Origin: Gammaproteobacteria bacterium
Lineage (GTDB): Bacteria > Pseudomonadota > Gammaproteobacteria > Arenicellales > Poriferihabitantaceae
Assembly: GCA_022822625.1 (NCBI GenBank)
Contig: JAJEAV010000033.1
Span: forward strand, 3,500-67,499
Length of the DNA stretch: 64,000 bases
Direction of reading: 5' to 3'
Within the stretch, counting starts at the first letter, position 1. Every line of letters starts with the position of its first letter. Shown piece after piece: positions 36,100-52,475 of the stretch. The translations under genes were made by a program, and so were the position numbers. Under the pieces are notes generated by a model. It saw only the letters and a list, made by a program, of their open reading frames with translations. It was not told the DNA's origin and did no database searches.

Positions 36100-36154
36100 T
36101 ACTTATTACTCTTGATTTTATGATTTTGGATTCAAGGAAGACTTGAAATATCCG

Positions 36155-36183
36155 CTTATAAGTTAGTCCGATAAATATTTGAA
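36155..36183 (-). promoter_or_regulatory. Candidate sigma70 promoter for hfq (TTCAAA-17-TATAAG)
   Basis: The minus strand reads TTCAAA (36183-36178), a 17-nt spacer, then TATAAG (36160-36155), about 55 nt upstream of the hfq ATG. This is a pattern match only, in AT-rich DNA. Confidence 0.25.
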
Positions 36184-36223
36184 AAGATGTAAATTAAATT
36201 TCTTTTTTTGTTGACAATACAAT

Positions 36224-36243
36224 AATAATTTGGGAATTATATC
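36224..36243. repeat. Right boundary of the tnpB unit: 8-bp direct repeat AATAATTT (36224-36231) plus 12-bp terminal inverted repeat GGGAATTATATC (36232-36243)
   Basis: Hand-verified against the sequence. The reverse complement GATATAATTCCC occurs at 37469-37480 and is followed by AATAATTT at 37481-37488. Confidence 0.8.
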
Positions 36244-36244
36244 T

Positions 36245-37432
36245 TTAAGTAACATACTGTTCTGCGTCCTGCCCGGTTTTCCCGGAATTGCCTCCGGCAT
36301 TGACCATGACATCTTTTCTGACATTCTCGGGCGCACCGGGAAGAGCAGATTCCTGCCCCATTTCCCACCCGGCAAGCAGGTAACCCTGCTTGAGAATGTT
36401 CCGGGATGCATTCACATCCCTGTCCAGTGATACACCGCAACCACCGCAATCAAACCGCCTCTTGTGCAGAGGCATCTTCTGACGATGGCCACAGACCGAG
36501 CAATCGGTACTGGTGTTATGCGGGGCAACCCGTACTACTTCCCCACCGGCACTTTCAGCCTTGTAGGCAAGCATGTCTACGAATTTGCCCCATTGCTGCT
36601 CCATGATGGCCCTTGCAAGATTGTGGTTCTTGACCATGTTATCAATCTGCAAGTTCTCTACCGCAATGCAGTTATGGCTCTTCATGATTTCGCTGGTGGC
36701 CCTGTGGAGTTCATCGTGTTCTATGATTCGCACTCTTTCCCACTCCCTCCGCAGGGCCATGACTTTCTTCCTTCGGCTATTGCTACCCTTTTCAGCTCTT
36801 GACAACTTCCGTTGCAGTCGCTTGAGCGTCCTGCGGTCAATGCGCCCGGCATCCAGCGTCATGCCACTGGACAGGATAGCCCTGTCCTTCAGTCCCAGGT
36901 CAACCCCGATGGGCTCATGGGGCTTTCTGGTGCAGGTGTTCTCCTTCTTCACTACGAACTGTATCGAAACCCGGAGGGCAGACTTTATGATCCTAACCAT
37001 CGTTGTCTTCCCTTCCGGCAGTTCCTTGAACCGGATAGTGCCGATACCCTTTATCCTGATGCTGTTACCATTGAACCTGGGATCAGGAACATCGAAGGAA
37101 TGAACGCCCCTGTGCCTGCTCTTTAACCTTGGATAGCCCGGCTTCTCGCCCGCTTTTACCCGCCTGAAAAACGCCTGGAACGCCTCATCAATTCGCCTCA
37201 ATGCGCTACGCTGGGTCTGTGCGTGATACTGCGAAAACTCCGGATCCTTGCGGATTTTGGTAAGGGACTTCTGCTGTTCGTAATAGGATATTGACCGCCC
37301 TGTCTTCTTGTAGCAGTCTTGCCTTTCTTGCAATGCTACATTCCACAATTCAGTCTGTTGACGTAGAAATGCATCAAGCCTGATATGAACAGGTTTGCCA
37401 ACTTTTGCTGTCTGTGTGATGGTGCGAATCAT
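36245..37432 (-). CDS. tnpB: IS200/IS605-type accessory protein TnpB (RNA-guided RuvC-like endonuclease family)
   Basis: RuvC motifs are 'IGVDLGLKD' (D), 'CIAVENLQI' (E) and 'SLDRDVNASRNI' (D). The zinc finger is 'CSVCGHRQ...FDCGGCG', and the N-terminus 'SYYEQQKSLTKIRKD...YHAQTQRSALRRIDEAFQAFFRR' is typical. I prefer the ATG at 37432 over the TTG at 37450. Confidence 0.85.
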   Translation of the reverse strand: MIRTITQTAKVGKPVHIRLDAFLRQQTELWNVALQERQDCYKKTGRSISYYEQQKSLTKIRKDPEFSQYHAQTQRSALRRIDEAFQAFFRRVKAGEKPGYPRLKSRHRGVHSFDVPDPRFNGNSIRIKGIGTIRFKELPEGKTTMVRIIKSALRVSIQFVVKKENTCTRKPHEPIGVDLGLKDRAILSSGMTLDAGRIDRRTLKRLQRKLSRAEKGSNSRRKKVMALRREWERVRIIEHDELHRATSEIMKSHNCIAVENLQIDNMVKNHNLARAIMEQQWGKFVDMLAYKAESAGGEVVRVAPHNTSTDCSVCGHRQKMPLHKRRFDCGGCGVSLDRDVNASRNILKQGYLLAGWEMGQESALPGAPENVRKDVMVNAGGNSGKTGQDAEQYVT

Positions 37433-37441
37433 GACCTGATT

Positions 37442-37463
37442 GTAACACAATCTAAAGTGTTAC
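37442..37463. repeat. Perfect 7-bp stem / 8-nt loop hairpin (GTAACAC-AATCTAAA-GTGTTAC) between the left TIR and the tnpB start
   Basis: Read directly from the sequence. It lies 10 nt upstream of the tnpB ATG and 6 nt inside the TIR. Confidence 0.6.
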
Positions 37464-37468
37464 CTTTC

Positions 37469-37488
37469 GATATAATTCCCAATAATTT
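37469..37488. repeat. Left boundary of the tnpB unit: TIR GATATAATTCCC (37469-37480) plus direct repeat AATAATTT (37481-37488)
   Basis: This is the partner of 36224-36243 and was hand-verified. Confidence 0.8.
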
Positions 37489-37604
37489 CATACGAATTGA
37501 AATGTGGCTAAAGGAAACGACCTTCAAATGGATTGTAAACCGAAAAACCCCCCTTGCCGAAAATAATTGAATCAACCCGGGCGGGAAATCCAAATGGAAC
37601 TGGA

Positions 37605-38753
37605 TTAGCAATCGCTCCGCTTATGCCACTCGACAAGATTATTTTCTTCGGTGCGAAGTGGGGCAGGATGATCCGGTTTCTCATCGACCCCGTCTACCCA
37701 AAATGGTGAACGTACAGACCTAAGCCGTCCTTCCGTCGGGTGGTCCACTTCGCCGAAAAAATCAACATCGTTCAGGTGTCCATCTTCAAACAAATCTACC
37801 AGAGACTGCACGGCAGAACAGGGAATATCAAGATCGCGCAATAGTTTCAACCAATCTGAATTTGATCGTTCCGACATTGCCTGGGACAGGACTTCATAAA
37901 GATCGGCAATGTGGTCACTGCGCTGTGCGGGGTCCCGCACCCAATCCGCTTCTGCCAGATCGGCACGCCCAATAGCCGTAAAAAACTCTACCCAGTTCCT
38001 GGTACTATACGGCAACACTGCCAAATACCCATCCTTGGTCGCATAAGGTTTGCGATAGGGTGACACGATACGTTCATAACCTGTTGTTCCGATTGCTGGT
38101 ACAAAAGTCTCGCCATCAAGATGCTCGGATAGCAAAAACGATGCAATGCCTTCATACATTGGAACTTCAATACAGCATCCCTGTCCGGTATTTGCATGAT
38201 GTATGAGTCCTGATAGAACTGCCAGGGCCAGATGAAGCCCTCCTACCTTGTCGCAAATGATCGTGGGCAGGAATCGGGGTTCATCCTTGTCGTTGCGGTT
38301 GAGGTCGGCAACTCCACATGCTGCCTGAATGATGTCGTCATAGGCAGGTAGTTCGGCATTTCGCCCGCCACTGGCATAGCCCGCCGCACAGCAATAAACG
38401 ATTTGAGGAAATGCGCTACGTATGCCTTCAGGATCAACACCCAACTGCTTGGCAGTCACCGGCCGCATGTTATGAACCAGTACATCGGCCCCATCCAGCA
38501 AAGACAGCAAATGATTTTTTCCTTCGGGTGATTTCAAGTCCAGTGTAATCGATCGCTTGTTGCGATTATTGTTGAGATACCCCGCTCCCATGCCTTCTGA
38601 ACGAGCAGGACGGACATAACGGAAAAGATCACCCGAGGGTGATTCGACCTTGATGACGTCTGCCCCGAAATCACCGAGATAGCGGGTAGCAAGCGGACCA
38701 AGTACAATCGTTGTCAAATCCAGAACTCTTGCGCCCTTCAGCAAGTCATACAT
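37605..38753 (-). CDS. Family III (CaiB/BaiF) CoA-transferase
   Basis: 'LKGARVLDLTTIVLGPLATRYLGDFGADVIKVESPSGD' and 382 aa length. Confidence 0.85.
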   Translation of the reverse strand: MYDLLKGARVLDLTTIVLGPLATRYLGDFGADVIKVESPSGDLFRYVRPARSEGMGAGYLNNNRNKRSITLDLKSPEGKNHLLSLLDGADVLVHNMRPVTAKQLGVDPEGIRSAFPQIVYCCAAGYASGGRNAELPAYDDIIQAACGVADLNRNDKDEPRFLPTIICDKVGGLHLALAVLSGLIHHANTGQGCCIEVPMYEGIASFLLSEHLDGETFVPAIGTTGYERIVSPYRKPYATKDGYLAVLPYSTRNWVEFFTAIGRADLAEADWVRDPAQRSDHIADLYEVLSQAMSERSNSDWLKLLRDLDIPCSAVQSLVDLFEDGHLNDVDFFGEVDHPTEGRLRSVRSPFWVDGVDEKPDHPAPLRTEENNLVEWHKRSDC

Positions 38754-38939
38754 CTGTAATCTCTATTCGTGTGCCCGCGCAGTAAGGATGTCCGCAACCC
38801 ATCAAGACGTGAGCATGTTCATTCCCAGTTGCAACTTGTCTGCAGCCGGAGCATGTTCTGAACTTCTACCAAAAAGTCAAGTGGGTGTAGCGACCCCCTC
38901 CCGATCGCAATCATAGTAGTTTAACGAATCACCCATGTA

Positions 38940-40877
38940 TTACGAATTTGATTTTTGAAAATGAGGTGAAGGATATGTATTCACTGGGGCAAACGAAGTA
39001 TCGTATTGTGGGTAATTCTCTTTGGGATCAAATCCATTATTGAAAGTACCCTTGGAGTTCTTCAGTATGTTGATGGTGGCATCAAGTGCCATTCGCAAGG
39101 CTGGTTCGGTCCAGCCCCCCTCAACACTGTAGTTTTCTCCTGCGAAATAGATTTTTGAATTGCTACTATGTTCCTGATTATATGCCAATAATGCGTAATT
39201 CAAGGCCCAGTTTCTTTGGCGATACAGTTTAGCACAGCCGTGAAAATATGTCTGCTGTGACCAATGTATTACAATTGGGCCACTGTCTATATCAACATAC
39301 TGAATAATCGACTCGTTGAGTGTTGATTGACATATTTCCTCAAGCTTGTCTAGCAGAAACTGTCCGATATAAGAATTGTCGAAAGGCAAAAGTTTAGTAG
39401 CATCATCTTCCCAGGTATAACTCGCCAACAAGACACCTTGTTCTCCACTTTTGTCTGACCATTTCACACCATAGGCATCTTGCACATATTCATCAGTCAC
39501 AATAACTTGAGGGATTTTAGACACGCCATTTTCCCAATATGTCTCTTTCAGTTTATAAAACACTTTGCAACTGGTGATATTATGCTGAGAGTTCCGTGCT
39601 GACAAGACCAATGGGGGCATTTCTGATTGATCAAACCCCGTTAGTTTGATATTTAACTCCGAAGCCCACAAGGTTGGCGTAACAACCACATGATCAACTT
39701 CATAGGTTTCTTTGGTTGAATCTTCACATACGATGTTTATCTTGCCAGTTGATGGATCTTTCTGCAATTCTTGAACCGGAGAATTAGTCAGAATTCGTAC
39801 ATAAGGATTGGATTTTTTCGATGCCTCATATAGTGACGAGTCACTTCCGGGCGGAGGAGCGTAAAACAACCATTCGTCAAGAGCTTGAATGCCTTTGTAA
39901 AGCGGTGGTTCAAGCTTGTTTCCCTTGCTATCTGTAACATCCGAGTTGTAATGCGGCAAGTTGGATTTATCGGTGATACCAACCACAGTTTGCAAGTTTG
40001 AGTTAAACCCGAACATTACGCATCTGATAAACCACATTGAGCTCACTTCATAGAAAGCTCCCCAGCTTCCATCCCCGGACCCAATGAGCGCAAATATTTG
40101 TGCCTGATCATCATCCATGCCAAAACCTCCAAACCAACCATCATTTTGATATTTGGTAATTGCAGGTGTATATACCAGGTCATTTACATTCATCTGTTCA
40201 TAGTTATTTGAAACATTTTTCCAAAATTTACCCCATTCGGCCCCGCTATATAACTTGCCTGCCTCCTGTGTAAACAAGGATACAAAGGCAGAAACCTTCT
40301 GATAAACCTCTTTCAACTTATCGTTGTCCGGAGGAGAAGGATTTGACGGAGTATACGGCCAATCAATTAATGTCGGTTTCGAGTATTCGTTATCAGGTCC
40401 ATAGCCTTTGTTGATATAAATCCCAGTGTTGCCCGGTGCGGCGCCAGGATTGGGGAAATCCTGTAAAGTACAGTTGCCTTCATCCAAAATATAGTACTCA
40501 GATACAGAGTTTTTACTGTCGGGTTTCGAAAAAAATGGGAACCGCATGGCCCCCATTTCCATGTCAGTAACTCCATCTGTATGAGTTGTATAGTGCCTGC
40601 CACAAATTCTACTTGTCGCTTCAATAAGAATGATTTTGTAGCCGCAACGATACAGTTCCCTAGCTGCTGTAATCCCTGCAATACCGCCACCGACTATGCC
40701 GATAGTTGGCGGATTATCAGCATTGGGCGCGTTACCGATTGAATTCTTGTTGTTTTTTGCGAGTGTAAGCAAGTGATAATAATTGAATCGGAAATCAGGA
40801 GGGCTGGGATATGCAGGAAGCCATTCATCAGCAGTGTTAACAACTTGTTGAAGGGGGACATTAAATAGTGTCTTCAT
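38940..40877 (-). CDS. FAD-dependent amine oxidase / amino-acid 2-monooxygenase-like flavoprotein (IaaM / L-amino-acid oxidase family)
   Basis: Dinucleotide fold 'IGIVGGGIAGITAARELYRCGYKIILIEATSRICGR', 'EMGAMRFP' as in tryptophan 2-monooxygenase-type enzymes, and C-terminal 'IYFAGENYSVEGGWTEPALRMAL'. I prefer the ATG at 40877 (MKTLF) over the TTG at 40883. The gene is visibly AT-rich. Confidence 0.7.
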   Translation of the reverse strand: MKTLFNVPLQQVVNTADEWLPAYPSPPDFRFNYYHLLTLAKNNKNSIGNAPNADNPPTIGIVGGGIAGITAARELYRCGYKIILIEATSRICGRHYTTHTDGVTDMEMGAMRFPFFSKPDSKNSVSEYYILDEGNCTLQDFPNPGAAPGNTGIYINKGYGPDNEYSKPTLIDWPYTPSNPSPPDNDKLKEVYQKVSAFVSLFTQEAGKLYSGAEWGKFWKNVSNNYEQMNVNDLVYTPAITKYQNDGWFGGFGMDDDQAQIFALIGSGDGSWGAFYEVSSMWFIRCVMFGFNSNLQTVVGITDKSNLPHYNSDVTDSKGNKLEPPLYKGIQALDEWLFYAPPPGSDSSLYEASKKSNPYVRILTNSPVQELQKDPSTGKINIVCEDSTKETYEVDHVVVTPTLWASELNIKLTGFDQSEMPPLVLSARNSQHNITSCKVFYKLKETYWENGVSKIPQVIVTDEYVQDAYGVKWSDKSGEQGVLLASYTWEDDATKLLPFDNSYIGQFLLDKLEEICQSTLNESIIQYVDIDSGPIVIHWSQQTYFHGCAKLYRQRNWALNYALLAYNQEHSSNSKIYFAGENYSVEGGWTEPALRMALDATINILKNSKGTFNNGFDPKENYPQYDTSFAPVNTYPSPHFQKSNS

Positions 40878-40900
40878 GGTCAAATAAGTATGAGTTATGG

Positions 40901-41020
40901 ATAAAAGGTAGTGCGTGGAGGATGAGATTCATCAAGTGGCTATCGTTGTGCTATCGGATTATACTTTGATTCCGTCCTTGAATTCCACTTCCAGTGTTGT
41001 CCAACAGCAATTACTAATTA
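40901..41020 (-). mobile_element. Second IS256-family tail fragment (last ~20 codons plus the element end)
   Basis: The reverse complement reads '...EVEFKDGIKV*' followed by 'cttgatgaatctcatcctccacgcactac'. By eye it is ~85% identical to 15350-15437 ('GVKFKDGIEI...cttgatgaacctcatccccatgcactac'). Confidence 0.65.
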
Positions 41021-41111
41021 TGAGGATTTTAATTTTACATTGGGTGGTATTCCGGGTTTTAAAAAACGGGTGTTGTGGGGCTGCTCCGTGCCGGAGTAGC
41101 AGTTGGGGAGG

Positions 41112-41264
41112 TCAGGGTCCCTGTGCATTTCGCAGGTGCGGGGAAACGATCTGCGTGAGCAGGGAATGCCGCCTCTTCCGGGTCAGACGCCTGTCCGTCC
41201 AGTCTTCATGGGCCTCTTCAAATCTCATCAGTCTGGTCTCCTCTAGCCATTTTGCCCGCTTCAT
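41112..41264 (-). pseudogene. Short N-terminal fragment of an HTH-type transposase/integrase (decayed)
   Basis: The minus strand encodes 'MKRAKWLEETRLMRFEEAHEDWTDRRLT...', which resembles the N-termini of some integrase-type IS transposases ('...RLMRFEE.Y..W...RLTQEEAA.LLG'). It stops after 50 codons. Confidence 0.3.
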
Positions 41265-41403
41265 GATCTCTCCAAAAAGCGGACAGTTTATGTGCTCGCA
41301 ACATTAACAAAGTTTTTAATTGCAATAGGAAATCGAAATATACATAATATACAATACATCCTTGATAATCCATGTTCGCAAAACAAAAATATCGAAAGCC
41401 ACT

Positions 41404-42963
41404 ATGTCCTGGTTAGCTGTTTTCTTCATCACAATCATTCTCCTTGTAGTGGTTATTGCCGTGTTCAATCGTTTTTACCACAAGGGTTCGCGCGAGAAAG
41501 CCTTGATCAGGACAGGTGCTGGCGGACAAAAAATCGTCATGGATGGGGGCTGTCTCGTGTTGCCCTTCCTGCATCAAGTCGAATTGGTTGACATGAGAAC
41601 AGCATACATGGAAGTTGTGCTGGAAAAAAACAATTCCATACTCACGGAAGACCGGATGCGTGTCGATCTTGGTGTTGCGTTTCATGTCCGAGTCATTCCC
41701 ACCGCTGAAGGTATCGCTACTGCTGCTCAGACGGTCGGAGTCAGGTCCCTCAACCCTGAAAGACTAATTGAATTTCTGAAAGGCAGATTCATAGACGCAC
41801 TGCAAAGCGTTATCGCTACGCATACCATGGACAATTTGCATGAAAATCGATCGCAATTCGTAGCAAGAACAACTGAGTTATTAAGGCCAAGCCTCGAAGA
41901 AAGCGGGCTAAAACTTGAATCTGTGTCTTTGGTGAGACTGGATCAAACAGAGTTTTCTGCACTGAATGAAAACAATGCATTCAATGCTGTCGGGATGAGG
42001 AAGCTGGCAGAAATCGTTACCGCAAACCGCCGAAAACGCAAGGAAGTCGAATCAAGTGCGGATTTGGCGATCCGTCGAACAGAACTGGAAAACATCAAAA
42101 GCCGAATACTCATCGATCTGGAAAAGGAGAAAGCGGAATCTGAAAAAACTATCGAAACGGAACAACTCAAGGCGGAAATGACCCGCCGTTCATCCCATGA
42201 ACGCGAGCAGGCAGAAATTGCATCAGGCCAGGCCAAACTGAATCGAGAACTCGAGATCAAGCGCTCTGAAATTGAACGCGATCAGCAAGTTCGAACAGCC
42301 GAAGTTAACGCATTAAAAGCTGTCGAAGATGCCCGGATTCAAAGTCAAATCGAACTGTCTGAACGCAGGATACAGGAGTCTCAGGCAATGGCAGATGCCG
42401 AATCAAGCCGCAAGGCAATCATTGAAGCGGAAGAAGACGTAAGCCTGGTTCAAGACCGACTGACCGCACAAAGGGCAGGCGAAATAGCCAGAATAAATGC
42501 AGAGCTGGAATCGACAACCGCCATCTACAAGGCCGAAAAAGCAGCGCAAATTGCACAAATTGAATCCGAAAGCGAAAAAGCTTCCTCAGACCTTGTCCAG
42601 GAACAGCTGAAAAATGAAATGTCGGTGAAAGCCCAGGGAGCACTCGAAATGATCAATGCTGAAAATGCCATGGATTCAGAGCTGATTGCAATGAAGCTCG
42701 AAGAGAGGAGATTAAACGTTCTTCCGGACATGGCAGACAAAATGTCACGCCCCCTGGAAAAAATCGGCAAGATTCACATCAATCATGTGGCCGGACTTGG
42801 TTCTGCCCCCAAGGGCGAAAAACAATCCTCTGGTTCGATTGTTGATGAAGTCCTTGATCTTGCCTTTCGGATGCCAGCCGTTAAAAAACTCGGCGAGGCT
42901 GTCGGTGCGGAAATCATCACCCCTGAAAATAAAAACGATACAATCAAGAACAAGAAGAAATGA
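41404..42963 (+). CDS. Flotillin/YqiK-like SPFH-domain membrane protein
   Basis: N-terminal TM 'MSWLAVFFITIILLVVVIAVF', an SPFH core ('ALIRTGAGGQKIVMDGGCLVLPFLHQVELVDMR'), then ~250 aa of E/A/K/Q-rich coiled coil. The ATG is at 41404. Confidence 0.75.
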   Translation: MSWLAVFFITIILLVVVIAVFNRFYHKGSREKALIRTGAGGQKIVMDGGCLVLPFLHQVELVDMRTAYMEVVLEKNNSILTEDRMRVDLGVAFHVRVIPTAEGIATAAQTVGVRSLNPERLIEFLKGRFIDALQSVIATHTMDNLHENRSQFVARTTELLRPSLEESGLKLESVSLVRLDQTEFSALNENNAFNAVGMRKLAEIVTANRRKRKEVESSADLAIRRTELENIKSRILIDLEKEKAESEKTIETEQLKAEMTRRSSHEREQAEIASGQAKLNRELEIKRSEIERDQQVRTAEVNALKAVEDARIQSQIELSERRIQESQAMADAESSRKAIIEAEEDVSLVQDRLTAQRAGEIARINAELESTTAIYKAEKAAQIAQIESESEKASSDLVQEQLKNEMSVKAQGALEMINAENAMDSELIAMKLEERRLNVLPDMADKMSRPLEKIGKIHINHVAGLGSAPKGEKQSSGSIVDEVLDLAFRMPAVKKLGEAVGAEIITPENKNDTIKNKKK

Positions 42964-43047
42964 AACACGGAACCGTATTCAGATGCCAATTCCATGGACA
43001 TTTGTCTACGCTATCCTTACATACACATTAGAGAGGAGTTATCCAAT

Positions 43048-44283
43048 ATGAACATAAAACGACGTCAATTCATCAAGGGTGCCGGGGCAGCCAGCGCCTC
43101 GCTATTTGTACCTCAACTTGCATTTTCCGCTTCTGGACCAGTCAAAATGGGAGTGTTGCTTGACACCTCAGGCCCGTTCAGCGCTTATGGAACACCAATG
43201 GAAATGGCGACTCGCCTTGCTGTAAAGCAAATCAATGACGGCGGGGGATTGCAAGGAAGGGAAGTCGAAATCGTGTTTCGAGACACTCAATCAGACATGA
43301 ATAATTACTCGACTTTTGCAAATCAGTTGGTACGTGAGGGGCTGGACGTATTCCACGGAGGCATTCTCTCTGCATCCAGAGAGGCAATCCGGCAAATATT
43401 GCGCCAAAGGGGAGTACCCTACTTTTACAACGTATTGTATGAAGGGGGCGTATGTGATCGAAACACTTTTGCCACAGGAACGACACCCGCACAACAGGTA
43501 GATGCGTTAATTCCATATGCAATAAATAAATTTGGCGCAAGGAAACTATACGTTCTGGCAGCAAACTACAACTACGGACAGATTACCTCCGCATGGGTCA
43601 ATGAGTATGCAAAAGCAAATGGCGCTACCGATGTTGAAGTCGAATTTTTTGACCTGTCGGATGGCGAATTCGGACCTGCTGTAATCGCAAAAATCCAAGA
43701 AGCTGACAGTGACTTGGTTGTATCCGTTCTTGTTGGTGCCGCCCATCTGAGTTTCTACGGACATTGGGCGGAAACCGGCATGAATCAGAATCCCGATGTC
43801 CACTTGGTTTCAACAACATTTGGAGTGGGTAATGAACACAAAGTATTGCCGGCCAACCAGAGTGACGGCATGCTGATCGCAAACAACTGGGCTCCCGATA
43901 ACCCTTCTGTTCCAGAGAACAAGAAGTTTCTGGATAGTTGGATTGCGGAGTATGGCGATACTGAAGCCATCCACGAGATTGCGGTTTCACAATATCATGG
44001 TATCTTGCTTTGGGCTGAAGCTGCTCGACAGGCTGGTGGGGTAGACAAGGAGTCCATTACCAAGGCACTTGAAAGCGGCATCTCAATTATCGGGCCTGCA
44101 GGTATGGTGAAAATGGACCCACTTACTCACCATTGCAGTCTCGACATTAATATTATGGAGTTAAGTGGTCAGAAGCTGAATGTAGTTCAGAAACTCGAGC
44201 AACGTGAACCACTGGATACTCGACGCTTCTGCAACTTGTCTGAAAACCCTGATTCCAACGTACAGTATGAAATAACCCTGTAG
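43048..44283 (+). CDS. ABC transporter substrate-binding protein, type I PBP (AmiC/FmdD/urea-amide/branched-chain family) with a Tat-type signal
   Basis: RBS GAGAGGAG lies at 43031-43038. The signal is 'MNIKRRQFIKGAGAASASLFVPQLAFS'. 'VKMGVLLDTSGPFSAYG' and 'KLYVLAANYNYGQ' are typical of the Leu/Ile/Val/amide-binding fold. Confidence 0.8.
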   Translation: MNIKRRQFIKGAGAASASLFVPQLAFSASGPVKMGVLLDTSGPFSAYGTPMEMATRLAVKQINDGGGLQGREVEIVFRDTQSDMNNYSTFANQLVREGLDVFHGGILSASREAIRQILRQRGVPYFYNVLYEGGVCDRNTFATGTTPAQQVDALIPYAINKFGARKLYVLAANYNYGQITSAWVNEYAKANGATDVEVEFFDLSDGEFGPAVIAKIQEADSDLVVSVLVGAAHLSFYGHWAETGMNQNPDVHLVSTTFGVGNEHKVLPANQSDGMLIANNWAPDNPSVPENKKFLDSWIAEYGDTEAIHEIAVSQYHGILLWAEAARQAGGVDKESITKALESGISIIGPAGMVKMDPLTHHCSLDINIMELSGQKLNVVQKLEQREPLDTRRFCNLSENPDSNVQYEITL

Positions 44284-44344
44284 AGAAAATCACTTTCAAG
44301 TTAATTCTCTGGTTGGAATTACTGTTTCCCTTCTTCGTAGCAAT

Positions 44345-44382
44345 GAGATTGCGCTTCAAATTTGCAGATGGAGCGCAATCTC
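44345..44382 (+). promoter_or_regulatory. Intercistronic stem-loop (11-bp perfect stem, 16-nt loop) between the binding-protein and permease genes
   Basis: GAGATTGCGCT (44345-44355) pairs with AGCGCAATCTC (44372-44382). No clean U-tract follows. ABC operons often carry such mRNA-stabilising or attenuating hairpins after the SBP gene. Confidence 0.45.
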
Positions 44383-44448
44383 GGAATTTTCCTGATTTGC
44401 GCCCGTTCTCAAACAGCAGGGCTGGTGCATTCCCGTTTTTTTGGTGAA

Positions 44449-45315
44449 ATGGACATCACAGCCATATTCATCCTGCAGATTTTCTATGCCATAGCCTTAC
44501 TGGCACTGATTTCTTTCGGGCTCGCGCTGATATTCGGAATGATGCGCGTCATCAATCTGGCCCATGGAGAATTCCTGACCCTCGGAGCCTATGCAACAAT
44601 TCTTTCTGCCAAAATGGGTGTTAATCTATGGATATCCATGCTTGTCATTTCTCCGCTGGTGGTCGGCCTGTGGAGCTTGATCGTTGAACGCCTTCTGATC
44701 AGATTCCTGTATGGTCGACTCGTGTACACGATGCTGGCCACATGGGGACTGAGTCTCGCCATGGCTGGCGCAATGACCATGATTTTCGGAACCACAACCG
44801 AAGGCGTGTCAGCACAGGCTGGTTCTTTCTCGGTCGGAACCTATCAGGCAAGCCTGTACAGCATTTATGTGATTGTGATAACGATTATCGTGGCGATGGT
44901 GATTGCCTTTGTTCTATTTGGCTCAAACTATGGTCGAGTCGCCCGTGCCGCGATGGAAAATCGAGAAATGGTAGAAGCATTCGGGTACCCGATCAACAAG
45001 GTTTACATGTGGACATTCGTAGCAGGCGGCATGCTATCTGGTTTAGCCGGAGGCATATTGGCGCCAACTACGGGAATTTCACCCTATAGCGGAAGTGCCT
45101 GGATAGCAGATGCCTTCATCACGGTCATTTCGGGCGGAACGGGTTCGGTGATGGGCACACTGGTGAGTGCTGGCATTTTGGGGTCCGTATCTTCGATCAC
45201 CTCCTTCATCTTCAGTTCTGCGTCCGGCGGGGTCGCTCTGCTTATAGCTGCCCTTGTACTGTTGCGCATTCTTCCTACCGGCATATCCAGCCTGTGGCAA
45301 CAGCGTAACCGATGA
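44449..45315 (+). CDS. Branched-chain/amide-type ABC transporter permease (LivH-like)
   Basis: 'MDITAIFILQIFYAIALLALISFGLALIFGMMRVINLAHGEF'. The protein is polytopic and the ATG is at 44449. Confidence 0.85.
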   Translation: MDITAIFILQIFYAIALLALISFGLALIFGMMRVINLAHGEFLTLGAYATILSAKMGVNLWISMLVISPLVVGLWSLIVERLLIRFLYGRLVYTMLATWGLSLAMAGAMTMIFGTTTEGVSAQAGSFSVGTYQASLYSIYVIVITIIVAMVIAFVLFGSNYGRVARAAMENREMVEAFGYPINKVYMWTFVAGGMLSGLAGGILAPTTGISPYSGSAWIADAFITVISGGTGSVMGTLVSAGILGSVSSITSFIFSSASGGVALLIAALVLLRILPTGISSLWQQRNR

Positions 45316-46349
45316 GTCTTGGTCAAAACAATTTCACAAAGAGCATGGTTGCTCCATTGCTCTTGTCAATACCGGTGATTGTTATCGCACCGTCAGTGAT
45401 GCAGCCCTATGCACTGGCGCAACTGTCCATCTTTGCCCTTTTGGCTTTAAGCCTTGGCTTGATATGGGGGTACGGGGGTATTCTGTGCTTTGGACAAGGT
45501 GCTTTTTTTGGTATTGGGGCCTATTCATACGTGATTTTGGTTACGAATCTATCGCTCCCCTGGACGTCCCTGATTTTGGCAGTTTTCTGCACAATGCTTG
45601 TCGCCGGATGCCTGGGACTGGTAATGTTTTATGGAAGGCTGGGGGATGTTTATCTCGCTGTTGTTACCCTGGTCTTTACCCTGATCCTGAATCGATTCAT
45701 GAACGCAACCGCCGGACCCGAGTACCACATCGGATCAGCCAGACTCGGAGGGTTTAACGGCATTCCTGGCTTTGACATGCTGAAACTGCCATGGAGTGAC
45801 TCGATGTTCATCCCGGATATTCTGTTCTTTTACATTTGCTTTGGATTTCTCATCATCTCCTGGATATTTTGTCGCTGGTTATTGAAAACTCATTTTGGCC
45901 GGGTGATGATTGCCATTCGCGAAAACGAGAGGAAGGTCGAATTTGCAGGCTATGACACACGATTGCACAAAACAATGACGTTTGCGATTGGAGGCGGTTT
46001 GGCTGGCATAGCGGGCGTTTTATATGCAAACTGGGCCGGAATCGTCACCCCGAGCCTGTTCAGCCTAACCCAGTCTGCGGAGATTATCATATGGACAATT
46101 GTTGGCGGACTTGGCACGTTGATCGGGCCAATCGTTGGCGCCGTCCTGCTGATGCTGCTGAAGCTGTTGCTCGGATACCAGACAGTTGTCGATAACTATT
46201 TTTTGCTGGGAGTTCTGCTAATCCTTGTTGTACTGTGGTTTCCCAATGGAATTGCAGGAGCTACAATGCAGTCGAGATTCCTTCAAAAAAATACGGCGAC
46301 GAAAAAATGGCGAACACATTCAAACCGTACAATGAATGTCAAACGATGA
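45312..46349 (+). CDS. Branched-chain/amide-type ABC transporter permease (LivM-like)
   Basis: There is an ATGA overlap with the upstream permease. 'LIWGYGGILCFGQGAFFGIGAY' and 'AIRENERKVEFAGYD' are typical LivM motifs. Confidence 0.85.
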   Translation: MSLGQNNFTKSMVAPLLLSIPVIVIAPSVMQPYALAQLSIFALLALSLGLIWGYGGILCFGQGAFFGIGAYSYVILVTNLSLPWTSLILAVFCTMLVAGCLGLVMFYGRLGDVYLAVVTLVFTLILNRFMNATAGPEYHIGSARLGGFNGIPGFDMLKLPWSDSMFIPDILFFYICFGFLIISWIFCRWLLKTHFGRVMIAIRENERKVEFAGYDTRLHKTMTFAIGGGLAGIAGVLYANWAGIVTPSLFSLTQSAEIIIWTIVGGLGTLIGPIVGAVLLMLLKLLLGYQTVVDNYFLLGVLLILVVLWFPNGIAGATMQSRFLQKNTATKKWRTHSNRTMNVKR

Positions 46350-47091
46350 TTCAGGATTAGTTTCTGTGTCCAATCTTGCTGTACTTCAAATTGAGGATTT
46401 GGTCGTCAGATTTGGCGGTGTAGCTGCCGTTGACGGTATCAACCTTACCCTCAATAGAAACGAATTGCGCTGTTTAATTGGTCCAAATGGAGCAGGGAAA
46501 AGTACGCTGTTCAAGGCGATTGCCGGTTTGGTACAACCATTATCTGGCAGAATTTGGGTCAAGAGCGAAGAAACAACGCACTTACCCCCTCATCTGGTAG
46601 CCCGCAGAGGAATCAGTGTAAAAACTCAGGTTCCCAGTTTACTGGAAGGACTGACAGTCTATGAAAACCTCTGGATTGTTGCTCGACGGAAATATCGCCG
46701 GCAAAGCTGCAAAAAAATGATTGAGCCCGTTATGGAAAGTGTTGGAATCTCGAATGATTCAACCACAATCGTAAACACCATGGCTCATGGAAGACGTCAA
46801 TTGGTTGAGTTTGCAACAGCCCTGATCGCCAAACCTTCCATTATGCTACTGGATGAGCCGGCAGCCGGGCTGTCCGATAAAGAAGTTGCAGATTTTGCCA
46901 AATTGCTGCACACCCTGCCCTCCCAGATGTCATTACTTGTTGTTGAACACAACATGAAATTTGTGCAAATGATTGCTCAACAAGTCAGCGTTCTTCATAA
47001 AGGCAGACTTCTCATTTCAGGCGAACCGGATCTTGTTTTCAACGATACAAGAGTTCAGGAAGTCTATCTGGGCAAGGAGGCCACTGCATGA
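46336..47091 (+). CDS. ABC transporter ATP-binding protein (LivG-like)
   Basis: Walker A 'GPNGAGKST', Walker B 'IMLLDEPAAGLS', and H-loop 'VVEHNM'. Confidence 0.9.
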   Translation: MSNDDSGLVSVSNLAVLQIEDLVVRFGGVAAVDGINLTLNRNELRCLIGPNGAGKSTLFKAIAGLVQPLSGRIWVKSEETTHLPPHLVARRGISVKTQVPSLLEGLTVYENLWIVARRKYRRQSCKKMIEPVMESVGISNDSTTIVNTMAHGRRQLVEFATALIAKPSIMLLDEPAAGLSDKEVADFAKLLHTLPSQMSLLVVEHNMKFVQMIAQQVSVLHKGRLLISGEPDLVFNDTRVQEVYLGKEATA

Positions 47092-49415
47092 ACGGTAACT
47101 CATCCTTCAATTTGCTGACAGTCAAGAATCTGAGCGCGGGTTACTCGGGAATTTCCGTGCTTAGAGATGTCAACCTGCATGTCAGTGAAGGAGAGTGCGT
47201 TGGCCTTTTCGGTCATAATGGCATGGGAAAGTCAACACTGCTTCGAACCTTGATTGGCTTGATTCGACCCCTGTCAGGGTCCATCGAGTTTGACGGTCAG
47301 GATATTACCCATCTTCCCACATGGAAAAGAGCCAGACTGGGTATGGGGTACCTACCTCAGGGGCGCGGTATTTTCCCCAGCCTTTCTGTTTCAGACAATG
47401 TCAGCATTGCATACAATCCGGACACTCGAGACAAGGATGAGCTGTCTGCCCTGGAAAGTGCAATCGCACGCTTTCCAATACTGGAACCTCTGCTCAAGCA
47501 GTCCGGCGGCACTCTAAGCGGTGGCGAACAGCAGATACTTGCACTAGCAAGGGCACTTACCGCCGATCCGGTCATGCTGCTTCTGGACGAACCAACAGAA
47601 GGAATTCAACCTTCCATCGTGATGGAAATTGCGAATGAACTGGCTACGATCGCAAAAAATACCGGACTAACCATATTGATGGTTGAGCAAAACATAGATT
47701 TCCTGAACGTCCTGGCGGATCGAGTCCTGCATATTGAAAACGGTAGAATTACTGAGCAGGGGAATCGATCTTCAAGTAGCATAGCACAGCCAAAACCGCA
47801 ACCATCCATTCCTCGAACTGAAACTGCAGTATCTACGACAGATTCTGGTCAGGAAGAATCTTTCGAGATCACTAGTGAACCAATTTTGGAGAAACAAATG
47901 CCAGTATCAAGACCGACAATTGATCAAATGCAAAAGATTTCGTCGGACCTTTATTTTCATATCGACAAAACTACCCTGACTGAATACCTGGACTTGGCTC
48001 AGTCCACCATTGATGCTTATGACGTTGTCGATGCAATGCCTGATGAATTGCCGGAGGTGAAATACCCCAGAACCGGCGGTCATATACCCGCAGAATCAGA
48101 AAACCCATTGAACGCCTGGTATGTGAAATGCGATATTCCAGGATCCCCGGACGGCCCGCTTAACGGCAAGGAAGTGGTACTAAAAGATACCATTTCCCTG
48201 TCTGGCATCAGAATGATGAATGGTGCGTCAATTATGGATGGATACGTGCCGGATATTGACGCATCGATTGTTACCCGAATTCTGGATTCCGGCGGAAAAA
48301 TTGTTGGAAAGGCGCGATGTGAATATCTCTGCCTGTCAGGCGGGAGCCATACCAGTACCGGCGGGCCGGTCAAGAACCCTTGGCGAACTACTCATTCATC
48401 AGGGGGGTCTTCATCAGGTTGCGGTGCCCTGATTGGTGCAGGAGAAGTGCCCATGGCAATTGGAGGAGATCAGGGAGGATCAGTCAGGATACCTTCTTCA
48501 TGGTCAGGTTGTTATGGCATGAAACCGACCCATGGGCTAGTGCCCTACACAGGCGTTATGGGGATTGAGCGCACTATTGATAATGTCGGGCCAATGACCA
48601 GAACCGTGCATGACAATGCATTGCTGCTTGAATCCATTGCCGGTTTTGATGATGGTTTGGACCCCCGTCAATACAGCATCAAAACCAATGCGTATGCGAC
48701 AGACATGCTTCAGGGAATTGCCGGGTTGCGGATCGGGGTCGTCAATGAAGGATTCGGATGGCCAAACAGTGAGTCGGATGTAGACGAATGCGTGCACTCG
48801 GCAATTGATTTGTTGCGTACTTTGGGAGCAAGGGTTGAAGAGTTGTCAATCCCCCTGCATCGGCAGGGCTCTGCCATATGGACACCCATTGCTCTTGAGG
48901 GGTTAACCGATTTCATGATGCATGGCAATACCTTTGGGACCAACTATCGCGGCTTGTACATGACCAGCATGATTGATCATTATGCCAATTGGCGAAACCG
49001 TGCTGATGAACTGTCTCCCAGTCTAAAAATCTGCATGATGATCGGGGAATACTTCATAAAGCATCATCGAGGGCGATATTATGGGAAGTCCCAGAATCTG
49101 TCGCGGCGACTACGCCGTGCCTATGACAATGCTTTTCAGCAATTCGATCTTTTGGTCATGCCAACGATTCAGATGAAGGCAACACCCCTGCCACCTCCCG
49201 ATGCACCGCTATCACTGTATATTCAACGAGCATTTGAAATGATTGTGAATACTGCACCGTTCAATTGTACAGGCCATCCCGCCATGAGCATACCATGCGG
49301 ACTAAGAGATGGACTACCGGTCGGAATGATGCTGATTGGAAAGTACCTGGATGAGTCAACAATCTACCGGGCCGCATACGAATTCGAACAATCATCCAAC
49401 TGGCAGGGGCTTTGA
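47088..49415 (+). CDS. Fusion protein: LivF-like ABC ATP-binding domain (aa ~1-225), low-complexity linker, then an amidase-signature (AS) family amidase (aa ~271-775)
   Basis: The N-terminal part has Walker A 'GHNGMGKST', signature 'LSGGEQQ', Walker B '[10 protein letters not shown]' and 'VEQN'. The linker is '[45 protein letters not shown]' (nt ~47760-47897). The C-terminal part has '[17 protein letters not shown]' and the AS core '[47 protein letters not shown]'. There is no stop codon between the two parts, and an in-frame ATG sits at 47898. Confidence 0.8.
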
Positions 49416-49422
49416 CTACACA

Positions 49423-51219
49423 ATGAGCAAGCTCGGCAAACCAATTACTGATCTTTCCAATCCCCTGATTGATTATTCGATCATTCCTGCCTGTTCATCT
49501 TCTTCATCGGGGAGTCATGGCCAGAAGTCAACTCGAAAATTCGTACGGCCGGGCATGTCCCATGTCAAGGGAGATACAACGACTCCCTTGCTCGAATTAT
49601 CCATCCCGGAGTTGGTCAATAAAACTGTTCGCAACCATCCCCAACGAACAGCTGTGGTGTTTTGCGATCAAGACATCCGGAAAACCTGGCAGGAGTTTGC
49701 GGCAGACATTGATCGGCTTGCCGCAGGATTTCTGGCTCTGGGGTTGAAAAAAGGCGATCGTTTGGGCATCTGGTCACCGAATTGTTATGAGTGGTTGCTA
49801 ACTCAGTTTGCCACCGCTAGAACGGGAGTGATTCTGGTCACCATCAACCCCGCCTACAAAATATCTGAACTAGGACATGTACTGGAAACGTCGGGATGCA
49901 AGGCCATTATCATGGCTCAGCAATTCAAGTCCAGTAACTATGTTGAAATGTTTCTGCAGCTCAAGGTGGATACATCCACATCCGAATTTCCTGATTATGG
50001 TTTGCCGAAACTGAAACACGCAATCGTTATCCACAATCAAGGTCAGAATGATACGCCAGCTGGGATGCATGCATTTTCCGAAATCATGAGCTTGCCCGGC
50101 CCCGCACATATTTTGCGTCTCGACGAAATCAGTGCCGACCTGCATCCAGATGATGCAATCAATATCCAGTTTACCAGTGGCACAACCGGCTTGCCAAAGG
50201 GTGCCACCCTTTCCCATCGAAATATCCTCAACAACGGGAAGTTTGTCACGGATGCCCAGGGATTTACGGAAAATGACAAGTTATGCATACCTGTTCCCCT
50301 GTATCACTGTTTTGGAATGGTTATGGGGGCCTTGGGCTGTGCGACCAAAGGTGCGACCATGGTGTTTCCTTCAGAGGGTTTCGAAGCAGCGGGTACTGCC
50401 CGTGCGATAGCCAAGGAAAGGTGTACAGCATTGTATGGCGTACCCACCATGTTTAATGCAATCCTGACTCTCGAAGACTTTGATTCGTATGACCTGACCT
50501 CTCTGAGAACCGGGGTCATGGCTGGTGCACCCTGCCCAATCGAAATCATGAAACGAGTTGTCGATGACATGCACATGACAGAAGTAACAATTGCTTACGG
50601 CATGACTGAAACAAGCCCGGTTTCCTTTCAAAGCAACCTGGATGACCCGATTGAAATGCGGGTATCAAAAGTCGGTCGGGTCCATCCGCATGTGGAATGT
50701 CGTGTTATTGATGACGAAGGCAATACAGTGCCAGTTGGACAACAGGGTGAATTATGCACTCGCGGCTATTCGGTCATGAAGGGATACTGGAACGACTCCG
50801 CACAAACCAGGGAGTCCATCGACACTGATGGTTGGATGCATTCGGGTGACCTGGCCATTATTGATAATATGGGATATTGCAACATTGTTGGTCGCGTCAA
50901 GGATATGATCATTCGTGGCGGAGAAAATATCTACCCAAAGGAAATCGAGGAATACCTTCACCAACATCCGGGAATTCAGGATGTTCAGGTGTTCGGTGTC
51001 CCAGATCACCATCTGGGTGAAGAAGTATGTGCGTGGGTAGTTCCGGTAGGTTCTCAAGGATTAAACGAACAAGACGTCATTGATTTCTGCAAAGGGCAAA
51101 TTGCCCATTACAAGGTGCCCCGTCATGTGCGAATTCGCGATGATTTGCCAATGACGGTTACTGGAAAAGCGCAAAAGTACAAAATGCGAGAAGCCATGAT
51201 TACGGAATTGGAACTATAA
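49423..51219 (+). CDS. AMP-binding acyl-CoA synthetase (ACSF2/medium-chain-like); start uncertain (49423 or 49555)
   Basis: '[16 protein letters not shown]', 'YGMTETSP', 'GWMHSGDLA', '[22 protein letters not shown]', and '[11 protein letters not shown]'. Confidence 0.85.
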
Positions 51220-51497
51220 GGCCCGATTGGCAATCACTGACAACAAAACAAGCCCCTCTAATCTTCATGTCTTGTCTTTGGAACTGCAGATTCATTGATC
51301 CAAAAAAGATCAGGAGCATTGCGTTGGAGGCTTCAATCAAGCCACGGGATTCCAGTTTGTCTGAGCCTCATCAATCCGGACATTAACTATCTGCTGTTTC
51401 ACTTCCTGCCGAATGGTTGTCAGATACCACAAGCAATTACACCAACACAAGACTTTATCAGCCAGACACATCGCATCGGAACTGAAACGAGGATTGC

Positions 51498-52475
51498 CTA
51501 TTGCTGACTCGGCAACGGATTGCCGGCATCAGCCTTGACGTTCAACGACTGCAGATATTCGAAAATCATCCTCTCGGGGTTCCGATCCTCGGCATTTACC
51601 CACACTACGCTGGATTGATTACGCAACCATGTCAGTTGTCGCTTTGCCAGTTGCCGAGTCGCCGCTATGCCCTTTTCGATCATTTCGTCCTCGCTTGACT
51701 TGCCATGCAGATAATCGATTACCTGACGGTATCCAACGCTACGCATGGAAGACAGGGTTTCAGGTCTCTTGAGTTTTCCGATCAACATTTCAACTTCACG
51801 GACCAATCCTTTTTCAATCATGTCCAAAAATCGCACCTTGATCCGCTCATGCAAAATTGGCCGAGGACGAAACAACGCGATTTTTCGATACTGGATTTTC
51901 ATGCTTTGAGGACGTGATTCTGCCATCACCGACGAAGGAGGCTGGCCGGTAATTCTGAATATCTCCAAGGCTCTCTTGATTCGTTGTGCATCCTGGGCCC
52001 TGATTTTTCCTGCGCTCGCCGGATCAATCTCTGCAAGCTGTCGATGCAGATATTCCAGGCCCTTTTTCTTGCCTATCCGCTCAATTTCAGACCGCGCCTC
52101 CGAATCTGCTCCAGGCAGTTTTGATATTCCGTTTTCCAGTACCGAAAAGTAGAACATGGTGCCACCCACCAGAAGCGGTGTCTTGCCTTTGGCGAGAATC
52201 GACTCAATGAGAGACAGAGCATCATTTCTGAATTCTGCGGCCGAATAGCTCTCGGTGATACCACGAATATCGATCAAGTGATGGGGAACGCGTTGTAAAA
52301 ACTCCTGATCCGGCTTTGCCGTACCGATATTCATGCCGCGATAGACCTGACCGGAATCCACGCTAATCAATTCTGCATCCAGAAGCCCGAAGAGATGTTC
52401 TGCAACCGATGACTTGCCGACTGCAGTAGGGCCCATCAGAAAAACAGCAATGGGAACAGAGGGTTTATCTGCCAC
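51498..52475 (-). CDS. miaA: tRNA dimethylallyltransferase
   Basis: P-loop 'LMGPTAVGKSS', 'ELISVDSGQVYRGMNIGTAKP', and 'PHHLIDI'. The start overlaps the end of mutL. Confidence 0.9.
   Translation of the reverse strand: MADKPSVPIAVFLMGPTAVGKSSVAEHLFGLLDAELISVDSGQVYRGMNIGTAKPDQEFLQRVPHHLIDIRGITESYSAAEFRNDALSLIESILAKGKTPLLVGGTMFYFSVLENGISKLPGADSEARSEIERIGKKKGLEYLHRQLAEIDPASAGKIRAQDAQRIKRALEIFRITGQPPSSVMAESRPQSMKIQYRKIALFRPRPILHERIKVRFLDMIEKGLVREVEMLIGKLKRPETLSSMRSVGYRQVIDYLHGKSSEDEMIEKGIAATRQLAKRQLTWLRNQSSVVWVNAEDRNPERMIFEYLQSLNVKADAGNPLPSQQ

Follow-up and report, generated by a model that had tools for sequence, protein, structure and literature searches.

Why should an ATP-binding cassette (ABC) importer carry a complete amidase on one of its ATPases, and does that amidase occur only in the tethered form? 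The question is raised by a gene found in a stretch of 64,000 nucleotides (referred to below as the window, whose positions are used throughout) from a member of the Gammaproteobacteria (Arenicellales; Poriferihabitantaceae), which comprises positions 3,500 to 67,499 of the forward strand of contig JAJEAV010000033.1 (assembly GCA_022822625.1). An earlier note, made from the sequence alone, had described this gene as an ABC ATPase fused in frame to an amidase-signature enzyme. The explanation that best accounts for the evidence as a whole, to which a probability of about 65% can be assigned, is that the gene codes for an ATPase-tethered amidase of the RhAmidase type, belonging to an importer of the Urt/HAAT family, and that an internal start in the same gene yields, in addition, a free amidase. 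The gene and its parts are the following:

47088 to 49415, forward strand: fusion gene of 775 amino acids, composed of a UrtE-like nucleotide-binding domain (NBD), a linker and an amidase-signature enzyme (open reading frame (ORF), Pfam, NCBIfam, conservation)
47088 to 47759, forward strand: NBD, amino acids 1-224 (motif positions, AlphaFold 2 (AF2) model, Foldseek, invariance in 66 fusions)
47760 to 47897, forward strand: linker predicted to be disordered, amino acids 225-270 (alignment to 120 homologues; confidence of the AF2 model, given as predicted local distance difference test, pLDDT)
47898 to 49415, forward strand: amidase-signature domain, amino acids 271-775, which is also the putative internally initiated free amidase of 505 amino acids (NF005565, PDB entry 3A1K, triad mapping)

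The frame is open over its 775 codons without any internal stop, which bears out the continuity between the two parts that had been reported. Its start is preceded by the Shine-Dalgarno (SD) sequence AAGGAGG (duplex energy of -11.4 kcal/mol) and is overlapped by the stop of the preceding gene (46336 to 47091), both sharing the ATGA tetranucleotide. Pfam recognizes ABC_tran (PF00005) at amino acids 25-170 (119.2 bits, E = 2.5e-34, cut-off 25) and Amidase (PF01425) at amino acids 352-759 (301.4 bits, E = 1.7e-89, cut-off 27). The N-terminal half contains a Walker A motif (GHNGMGKST, amino acids 42-50, positions 47211-47237), the Q-loop residue Q91, the ABC signature (LSGGEQQ, amino acids 143-149, positions 47514-47534), a Walker B motif with the catalytic Glu (LLLDEPTEG at amino acid 164, positions 47577-47603, including D167 and E168) and a VEQN motif (47682-47693). 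This domain is modelled by AF2 with a pLDDT of about 90 and resembles the LivF-like protein 1JI0 and LptB in Foldseek comparisons (template-modelling (TM) score of 0.83-0.85, root-mean-square deviation of about 2 Å). The description of a complete NBD is therefore correct, since all its motifs could be located, but LivF-like is not the best label, since TIGR03410, the UrtE model, scores 246.6 bits, well above the LivF model. As this score is still a little below the cut-off of 285.8, the ATPase is best named UrtE-like, short of the status of a UrtE equivalog. In the whole 64-kb window just one further NBD of this kind is encoded, by the UrtD-like gene directly upstream (30% identity) and, for this reason, the fused NBD must be the second ATPase of the transporter.

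The C-terminal half is a full amidase-signature domain, as the earlier note had proposed. NF005565, a model of PRK07235-type amidases, matches amino acids 271-773 end to end (profile positions 1-504 of 506; 754.1 bits, cut-off 545), and this match takes in an N-terminal helical domain (AF2 helices at amino acids 278-316). The motifs GGSSSG (amino acids 439-444) and GGSVR (at amino acid 463) lie, like those of the NBD, at the places where they had been quoted. The predicted catalytic triad, formed by Lys366 (codon 48183-48185), cis-Ser441 (48408-48410) and the nucleophile Ser465 (48480-48482), aligns with K96, S171 and S195, the triad of RhAmidase (PMC11732141). Identity to this enzyme (PDB 3A1K/3A1I) reaches 47% over 475 aligned positions (E = 4.5e-137), and RhAmidase is also the best Foldseek match of the amidase part. 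Among 66 aligned fusions, Walker A, Q91, LSGGEQQ, D167, E168 and E200-Q201 are invariant in the NBD, and K366, S441 and S465 in the amidase, so that the Ser-cisSer-Lys context, on which the earlier note had made its interpretation depend, is present throughout. Judging from these residues, both halves look functional and the amidase looks catalytically competent.

The fusion is by no means restricted to this genome. When 5.8 billion protein sequences were searched, both Pfam domains were found together in at least 120 cluster representatives, which have 755-845 amino acids and identities to the window protein down to 54%. Some of these come from isolates (Mesorhizobium, Denitrobaculum, Pelagibius and Pacificispira) and others from Tara Oceans, and the family is labelled in the databases only as 'amidase' or 'indoleacetamide hydrolase'. 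When clustered at 50%, the fused family is reduced to one full-length representative. In species-representative genomes 80 loci were detected (given here as L-numbers), 54 of which have the fusion intact. These belong to Arenicellales, Rhodobacterales, Bradyrhizobium and other Alphaproteobacteria, Burkholderiales (from lake and soil), Granulosicoccaceae and Chromatiales, the closest being sponge-associated Arenicellales (Candidatus Poriferihabitans; 86% identity), from which it can be concluded that the window stems from a gammaproteobacterium of this order living in association with sponges. The database search that the earlier note had called for, in order to see how rare this architecture is, shows that it is common, being widespread in Alpha-, Beta- and Gammaproteobacteria. 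A 3-kb contig binned as 'Chloroflexi bacterium SB0662_bin_44' (L001, VXOZ01000062.1) also contains a fusion gene, with 92% amino-acid identity to that of the window, and is probably a misbinned Arenicellales contig from a sponge metagenome.

The linker between the two domains is rich in Ser, Pro, Thr, Gln and Glu in the window, as had been described, where it has about 46 amino acids, and rich in Ala, Pro, Ser, Gly and Thr in the family at large. Among the 120 homologues its identity to the window sequence is 0.11-0.18, both domains being conserved, and its length, of 38-120 amino acids in the database proteins, reaches about 150 in the loci. In spite of this, there is not a single in-frame stop in the linkers of the 54 loci, versus 75 and 92 in the other two frames. 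That the frame has remained open despite the hypervariability of the linker, in both sequence and length, shows, by comparison within the family, that the tether is real and under selection and that the fusion gene is genuine and maintained by selection. AF2 gives amino acids 224-269 a pLDDT of 28-44 and no secondary structure, and the linker is accordingly modelled as flexible or disordered. The linkers of lake Burkholderiales (L043-L052) have 133-156 codons, mostly for Ala, Pro and Arg, with a G+C content of 79-85% and no in-frame stops. Directly after the NBD core, most fusions from Alpha- and Betaproteobacteria (P0023-P0120) present the motif L-I-E-E-F-x-G-L/F-G, which is also found in UrtE-like proteins of relatives in which ATPase and amidase are separate (L079, 10779-11528) and which has been lost in the Arenicellales group, including the window.

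Whether the amidase is also produced on its own depends on the ATG at 47898, which codes for Met271 and which the earlier note had pointed out as a possible internal start. This proposal receives strong comparative support. Met271 is kept in 121 of 121 fusions (P0119, the lone seeming exception, is due to an alignment offset) and is flanked by variable positions (270, 272 and 274), within a conserved M-[TS]-V-[RK]-R-P motif that in Alpha- and Betaproteobacteria has a one-residue insertion after this Met. In an exhaustive search, residue 1 of many free-standing amidases of about 500 amino acids was found to align to residue 271 of the query and, because of this, Met271 is identified as the ancestral initiator. 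The ATG is preceded by the following element:

47888 to 47892, forward strand: SD-like sequence GGAGA, 5-6 nucleotides before the internal ATG (anti-SD duplex of -6.4 kcal/mol)

Most of the 54 fused loci have such a purine-rich motif 6-10 nucleotides upstream of the ATG (GGAG, GGAGG, GGGGGA or CAGGAG), placed in varying codon registers and coding for different residues (L-E-K, R-E, G-G, G-E or G-V). When SD strength is expressed as the percentile of the anti-SD duplex energy among all in-frame positions of the same ORF, the internal ATG has a median of 0.043, versus 0.48 for 1449 other in-frame ATGs (Mann-Whitney p = 5e-25, with related loci counted as independent), and is in the top decile in 76% of the loci; the true starts of ten non-fused amidase genes have a median of 0.035. 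The mRNA is also less structured in a 60-nucleotide segment on the internal ATG than the ORF median in all 54 loci (median percentile 0.04; Wilcoxon p = 8e-11, related loci being again counted as independent), and in the window it reaches -4.8 kcal/mol, versus a mean of -12.6. Taken together, these signatures suggest that a free 55-kDa amidase is probably made beside the 85-kDa fusion. Consensus scans around the linker detected no more candidate promoters or terminators than they did in shuffled sequence, and a separate amidase transcript is neither supported nor excluded by them.

The alternative that survives best is that the 85-kDa fusion is the only product, the internal ATG and its purine motif being either relics of two former genes or the result of constraints on protein structure. 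It is favoured by the fact that Met271 belongs to an N-terminal motif that is itself conserved (M-[TS]-V-[RK]-R-P) and by the weakness of the SD-like motif in some loci, and dimerised tethered amidases could bridge two transporters instead of pairing with a free subunit. However, a neutral relic should have decayed in a linker that has diverged wholly in sequence and length, whereas the SD-like motif persists across codon registers and encoded residues (EK, RE, GG, GE, GV), with a strength equal to that of genuine amidase starts, and the mRNA is minimally structured at the ATG in 54 of 54 loci. A single product is for these reasons regarded as unlikely, although it still deserves serious consideration.

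The function of both products has to be considered in the context of the genes that surround the fusion, which are the following:

41404 to 42963, forward strand: SPFH/flotillin-like membrane protein (Pfam Band_7, 55.1 bits, cut-off 23.6; Flot, 59.8 bits, cut-off 27)
43050 to 44283, forward strand: periplasmic solute-binding protein (SBP) with AmiC/UrtA fold and twin-arginine translocation (TAT) signal (Pfam Peripla_BP_6, Peripla_BP_5, TAT_signal)
44362 to 45315, forward strand: UrtB/LivH-like permease (Pfam BPD_transp_2; TIGR03622, 210 bits, and TIGR03409, 179 bits, both below cut-off)
45312 to 46349, forward strand: UrtC/LivM-like permease (Pfam BPD_transp_2; TIGR03727, 239 bits, below cut-off)
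46336 to 47091, forward strand: UrtD/LivG-like ATPase, the partner NBD (Pfam ABC_tran; TIGR03411, 221 bits)
49423 to 51219, forward strand: acyl-coenzyme A (acyl-CoA) ligase of the AMP-binding family (Pfam AMP-binding, AMP-binding_C; NF009233, 806.6 bits, cut-off 832)

An SBP, two BPD_transp_2 permeases and two different NBDs are thus found in one cluster, which is the layout of importers of the HAAT/Urt type. The longest ORF of the SBP opens at 42994, but the TAT signal MNIKRRQFIKGAGA and a good SD sequence (AGAGGAG) indicate ATG 43050 as the likely start; the start of the UrtB/LivH-like permease is uncertain, ATG 44449 being also possible, and the longest flotillin ORF begins with a TTG at 41362, its likely start being ATG 41404. 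The likely start of the ligase is ATG 49423, 8 nucleotides past the stop of the fusion and, consequently, the fusion is not the last gene of the operon, as had been claimed. The ligase gene lies downstream of the fusion in 45 of the 46 fused loci that could be assessed, and the flotillin gene lies directly upstream of the SBP gene in 42 of 43, versus none of the four true split loci (in which ATPase and amidase are separate proteins) in either case. From these counts it follows that fusion, transporter, flotillin and ligase form one coherent module of seven genes.

In the reading preferred here, that of a tethered amidase accompanied by a free one, the TAT-exported SBP would capture a small primary carboxamide with a hydrophobic substituent, as the residues of its ligand site suggest, and the two permeases and the UrtD/UrtE-like ATPase pair would import it, as expected for the family. 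The tethered amidase, situated a few nanometres from the cytoplasmic exit, would then hydrolyse the amide to carboxylate and ammonium, possibly by channelling. The earlier note had already proposed an amide hydrolase tethered to its own importer; the tether is well founded (open frame, linker modelled as disordered and invariant residues), while hydrolysis at the very exit of the permease is what we infer from it. Small neutral amides readily cross membranes and, because of this, their immediate conversion to charged products would trap an uncharged solute otherwise able to leak out, an advantage at the low amide concentrations of seawater and lakes. The acyl-CoA ligase would finally turn the acid into its CoA thioester, as suggested by the conserved adjacency of its gene.

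The ATG at 47898, with its ribosome-binding site, would act as a second start from which the free 55-kDa amidase is made, and the most likely reason for its existence would be stoichiometric. Since the NBD pair is a UrtD/UrtE heterodimer, there would be one UrtE per transporter; RhAmidase, on the other hand, is a homodimer of about 107 kDa (PMC11732141), and it is plausible that the free subunit completes an amidase dimer on the tethered one. More speculatively, flotillin might scaffold the assembly in the membrane. The most elaborate version of this model, a flotillin-scaffolded 'transport metabolon' in which importer, amidase dimer (one subunit tethered and one internally initiated) and ligase would convert the amide vectorially into acyl-CoA and ammonium, is tentative and rather doubtful as a whole; if true, it would constitute a form of metabolic trapping similar to group translocation, a mode not described for the ABC superfamily.

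A regulatory role has also been considered, in which the amidase domain would be a sensor that gates the ATPase in response to the cytoplasmic amide or its product, and not a catabolic enzyme. When importer NBDs have accessory domains at the C-terminus, these are typically regulatory, and it is there that the amidase is joined to the NBD. Nevertheless, this role is improbable, because neither the Ser-cisSer-Lys triad nor the signature motif varies, the module of the window was not seen to encode a second such amidase, the downstream acyl-CoA ligase needs an acid product, and a long disordered linker would be a poor allosteric coupler.

With regard to the substrate, Urt models score best for all five components of the transporter, and the solved SBPs nearest to that of the window include urea-binding UrtA proteins (the best PDB match is 8TG1, on which no paper was found). 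Both facts would agree with a urea or ureide transporter whose fused enzyme hydrolyses a urea-derived compound, such as allophanate or 1-carboxybiuret. However, every score is below its equivalog cut-off (297.2 versus 494.8 for the SBP, 210.2 versus 374.25 for UrtB, 239.2 versus 575.55 for UrtC and 221.2 versus 304.1 for UrtD, in addition to that of UrtE given above), and the SBP is below the cut-off of both urea SBP models. Urea is recognized in UrtA by W120, S122, Y141, Q144, E146, Y190, N246 and S274 (PMC10392092). The SBP of the window has I124, S126, Y145, L148, E150, Y192, Y194 and V247 where UrtA has W, S, Y, Q, E, Y, F and N, and G or T at the position of S274. It keeps, therefore, the residues for the carbonyl and one NH2 group (S126, Y145, E150 and Y192), whereas W120, Q144 and N246, which hold or position the other NH2, are replaced by Ile124, Leu148 and Val247. 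The same Ile, Leu and Val are present in all of the 39 SBPs from fused loci, and AmiC, which binds acetamide, also has a Val at the position of N246. From all this, the ligand would be a primary carboxamide whose substituent is small and hydrophobic, and not urea. In the same way, the fused enzyme is far below the cut-offs of the allophanate hydrolase (NF006043, 121.4 versus 487) and AtzE (NF006631, 157.2 versus 461) models and above that of the PRK07235 amidase, its nearest characterised relative acts on monocarboxylic amides, and the presence of an acyl-CoA ligase implies that the product is a carboxylic acid, all of which makes the urea alternative very improbable. An Rfam E-value search of positions 38500-52000 for a riboswitch or RNA element hinting at the ligand gave one chance-level match only.

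The origin of the fusion can be traced through relatives in which both proteins are separate. In several Burkholderiales (L037-L039, L057, L062, L063, L079) the amidase gene is right behind the UrtE-like gene, the TAG stop of the NBD being often located within the SD sequence of the amidase (TAGGAG), and in some Alphaproteobacteria (L061, L066, L074, L075, L078) the amidase gene is upstream of the SBP gene. These split relatives (for example L079, L039 and L062, or L061, L066 and L074) have homologous SBP, permeases, both NBDs and amidase, with 42-56% identity, but NBD and amidase are two separate polypeptides, and flotillin and acyl-CoA ligase genes are nearby in 0 of 4. In a neighbour-joining tree of the amidase domain, the fused forms constitute one clade, with the adjacent-split group as its sister and the 'upstream' group next. 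This topology agrees with a single, old fusion in which two adjacent genes lost the stop between them, the linker having grown and the fused gene having spread horizontally afterwards. The weakest alternative, that an indel or base error of assembly or sequencing deleted the stop between two ordinary genes, could invoke the close relatives with two adjacent genes and a TAG inside the amidase SD (L039, L062, L079) and the frameshifts present in two error-prone assemblies (L067, L071), but is effectively refuted already by the finding of the same open frame in at least 120 independent database clusters and 54 loci, obtained in many studies and platforms from many taxa, including the isolates named above, and with linkers of 38 to about 150 amino acids that are in frame every time.

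Several points weigh against the tethered-plus-free amidase. Split relatives manage without a covalent link, so that tethering is not essential for the pathway. Regarding the internal start, the SD and mRNA statistics treat kin loci as independent, and the SD-like motif is no more than weak (-3.3 to -4.3 kcal/mol) in about one quarter of the fused loci; furthermore, Met271 lies beside R275-P276, an invariant pair, and its conservation could have a structural cause, and the low mRNA structure could result in part from a local A/T-rich or proline/alanine-coding composition. The idea that a free subunit completes the dimer is based on the oligomeric state of one homologue. For the amidase domain AF2 gives a mediocre model, with several segments of pLDDT below 50 and a TM score of 0.46 to 3A1K, too weak for an analysis of the pocket. 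Finally, the PDB relatives of the acyl-CoA ligase are diverse and distant and the names of its 120 homologues are generic, so they do not reveal its substrate.

With respect to the remaining elements of the region, the flotillin-like protein has a transmembrane helix at amino acids 3-21 followed by basic residues, an SPFH domain and a coiled coil, an arrangement that suggests, according to the positive-inside rule, that the SPFH and coiled-coil part would be cytoplasmic. It has no sequence relative in the PDB and no NCBIfam model, and no NfeD partner was found for it, the small ORFs at 40915-41307 and 41292-41591 having no Pfam match. The gap of about 520 nucleotides upstream of its gene (40884-41403) contains no ORF recognisable by Pfam and no Rfam match, and no regulator gene was recognised within or beside the module. 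In many Arenicellales loci (L006, L009-L019, L041) the flotillin gene is preceded, at a distance of about 0.2-3 kb, by a second and only distantly related SBP gene of the same fold (22-25% identity), which is absent from the window. Likewise, one or two extra amidase-signature paralogues (26-34% identity) follow the ligase gene in many loci of Burkholderiales, Granulosicoccaceae and Chromatiales (L025, L026, L040, L043-L053), the window having none.

Divergent from the module, the reverse strand encodes a family III CoA-transferase (best partial match to formyl-CoA transferase, below cut-off) and a flavin amine oxidase of 647 amino acids (37605-40883 for both). A TnpB/IS605 OrfB-like gene (36245-37450, reverse strand; Cas12f1-like TNB and OrfB_IS605 domains) has no adjacent TnpA among the listed ORFs. 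The amine oxidase (38940-40883) was considered as an IaaM-like, amide-forming partner of the module and rejected, being conserved only in the nearest relatives, L002 and L003, and weakly in L005; the CoA-transferase and TnpB were also rejected as parts of the module, as they are not conserved. The amiB-mutL-miaA-hfq-hflX cluster, usual in gammaproteobacteria, is broken in the window, where miaA (51498-52475, reverse strand) and hfq (35857-36099, reverse strand) are about 15.4 kb apart. The seven-gene module, the amine oxidase, the CoA-transferase and the TnpB gene lie between them, and the whole stretch (36099-51498) looks like an inserted island. The ligase gene is located beside miaA-mutL in L002 and L003 as well.

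Each part of the system has a known counterpart. RhAmidase, from Rhodococcus sp. N-771 (PDB 3A1K/3A1I), which belongs to nitrile hydratase clusters, shares with the fused enzyme the 47% identity, the Lys-cisSer-Ser triad and the PRK07235-type subfamily and, since the alignment begins at its residue 20, the extra N-terminal helical domain is common to both; it is, however, a free soluble homodimer fed by nitrile hydratase, whereas the fused enzyme is tethered to an ABC ATPase and would be fed by an importer. UrtABCDE and AmiC/FmdDEF have the same five components in the same order (SBP, two permeases, two ATPases), with an SBP of AmiC/UrtA fold. The window system differs from UrtABCDE in that it misses the Urt cut-offs, replaces W120/Q144/N246 by I/L/V, contains a 550-amino-acid C-terminal extension on the UrtE subunit and adds flotillin and acyl-CoA ligase to the module.

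The coupling of amidase and ligase has a parallel in the aldoxime-nitrile pathway of Pseudomonas chlororaphis B23, in which the amide is reportedly converted to the acid and this to acyl-CoA. There, too, the genes of an amidase of the signature family and of an acyl-CoA synthetase are coupled, although the amide arises intracellularly from a nitrile, whereas the window module has no nitrile hydratase and its amide would be imported (both ligases are likened here by their role in the pathway, not by homology). The order of that cluster, as outlined in PMC5391958 from Hashimoto et al. 2005, is amidase followed by the acyl-CoA synthetase AcsA. With respect to the internal start, the genes of SpaO and CheA (long and short forms), together with that of Cas11b, also have within a longer ORF a conserved start, in the same frame and served by a ribosome-binding site of its own, the short product being the C-terminal part of the long one; in these cases both products have been shown experimentally and co-assemble, while for the fusion gene the evidence is comparative and the long form joins two formerly separate genes. 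MalK, MetN, OpuAA and ModC have an extra domain at the C-terminus of the NBD. These domains are small structured regulatory modules packed on the NBD dimer, whereas the fusion carries a complete catabolic enzyme of 505 amino acids at the end of a long tether, predicted to be disordered.

Searches of full-text literature on amidase/ABC fusions, on UrtE with amidase and on flotillin with ABC transporter and amidase turned up nothing on this architecture, in agreement with the impression of the earlier note that it is uncharacterised. All the components come from known families, and it is the covalent link between NBD and enzyme, the dual-initiation signature and the strict linkage to flotillin that appear to be undescribed.

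Normally, an ABC importer is regarded as delivering its substrate free into the cytoplasm, and the accessory domains of its ATPases as regulatory. Here, a whole catabolic enzyme is mounted on the motor, and bacteria of three proteobacterial classes, from the sea, sponges, lakes and soil, have retained this arrangement. It offers a natural test of the coupling between transport and the first step of catabolism, which may serve to trap permeant solutes, to scavenge at low concentrations and to obtain nitrogen from amides. The conserved internal start would be an example of how a fusion solves a stoichiometry problem, that of one tether per transporter and a dimeric enzyme, and, through the strict linkage of its gene, a bacterial flotillin would have a client that is defined genetically, which is rare. 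The existence of cultured carriers (Mesorhizobium, Denitrobaculum, Pelagibius and Pacificispira) makes the system experimentally accessible, and the labels 'amidase' and 'indoleacetamide hydrolase', under which this family is at present distributed in the databases, hide its transporter half.

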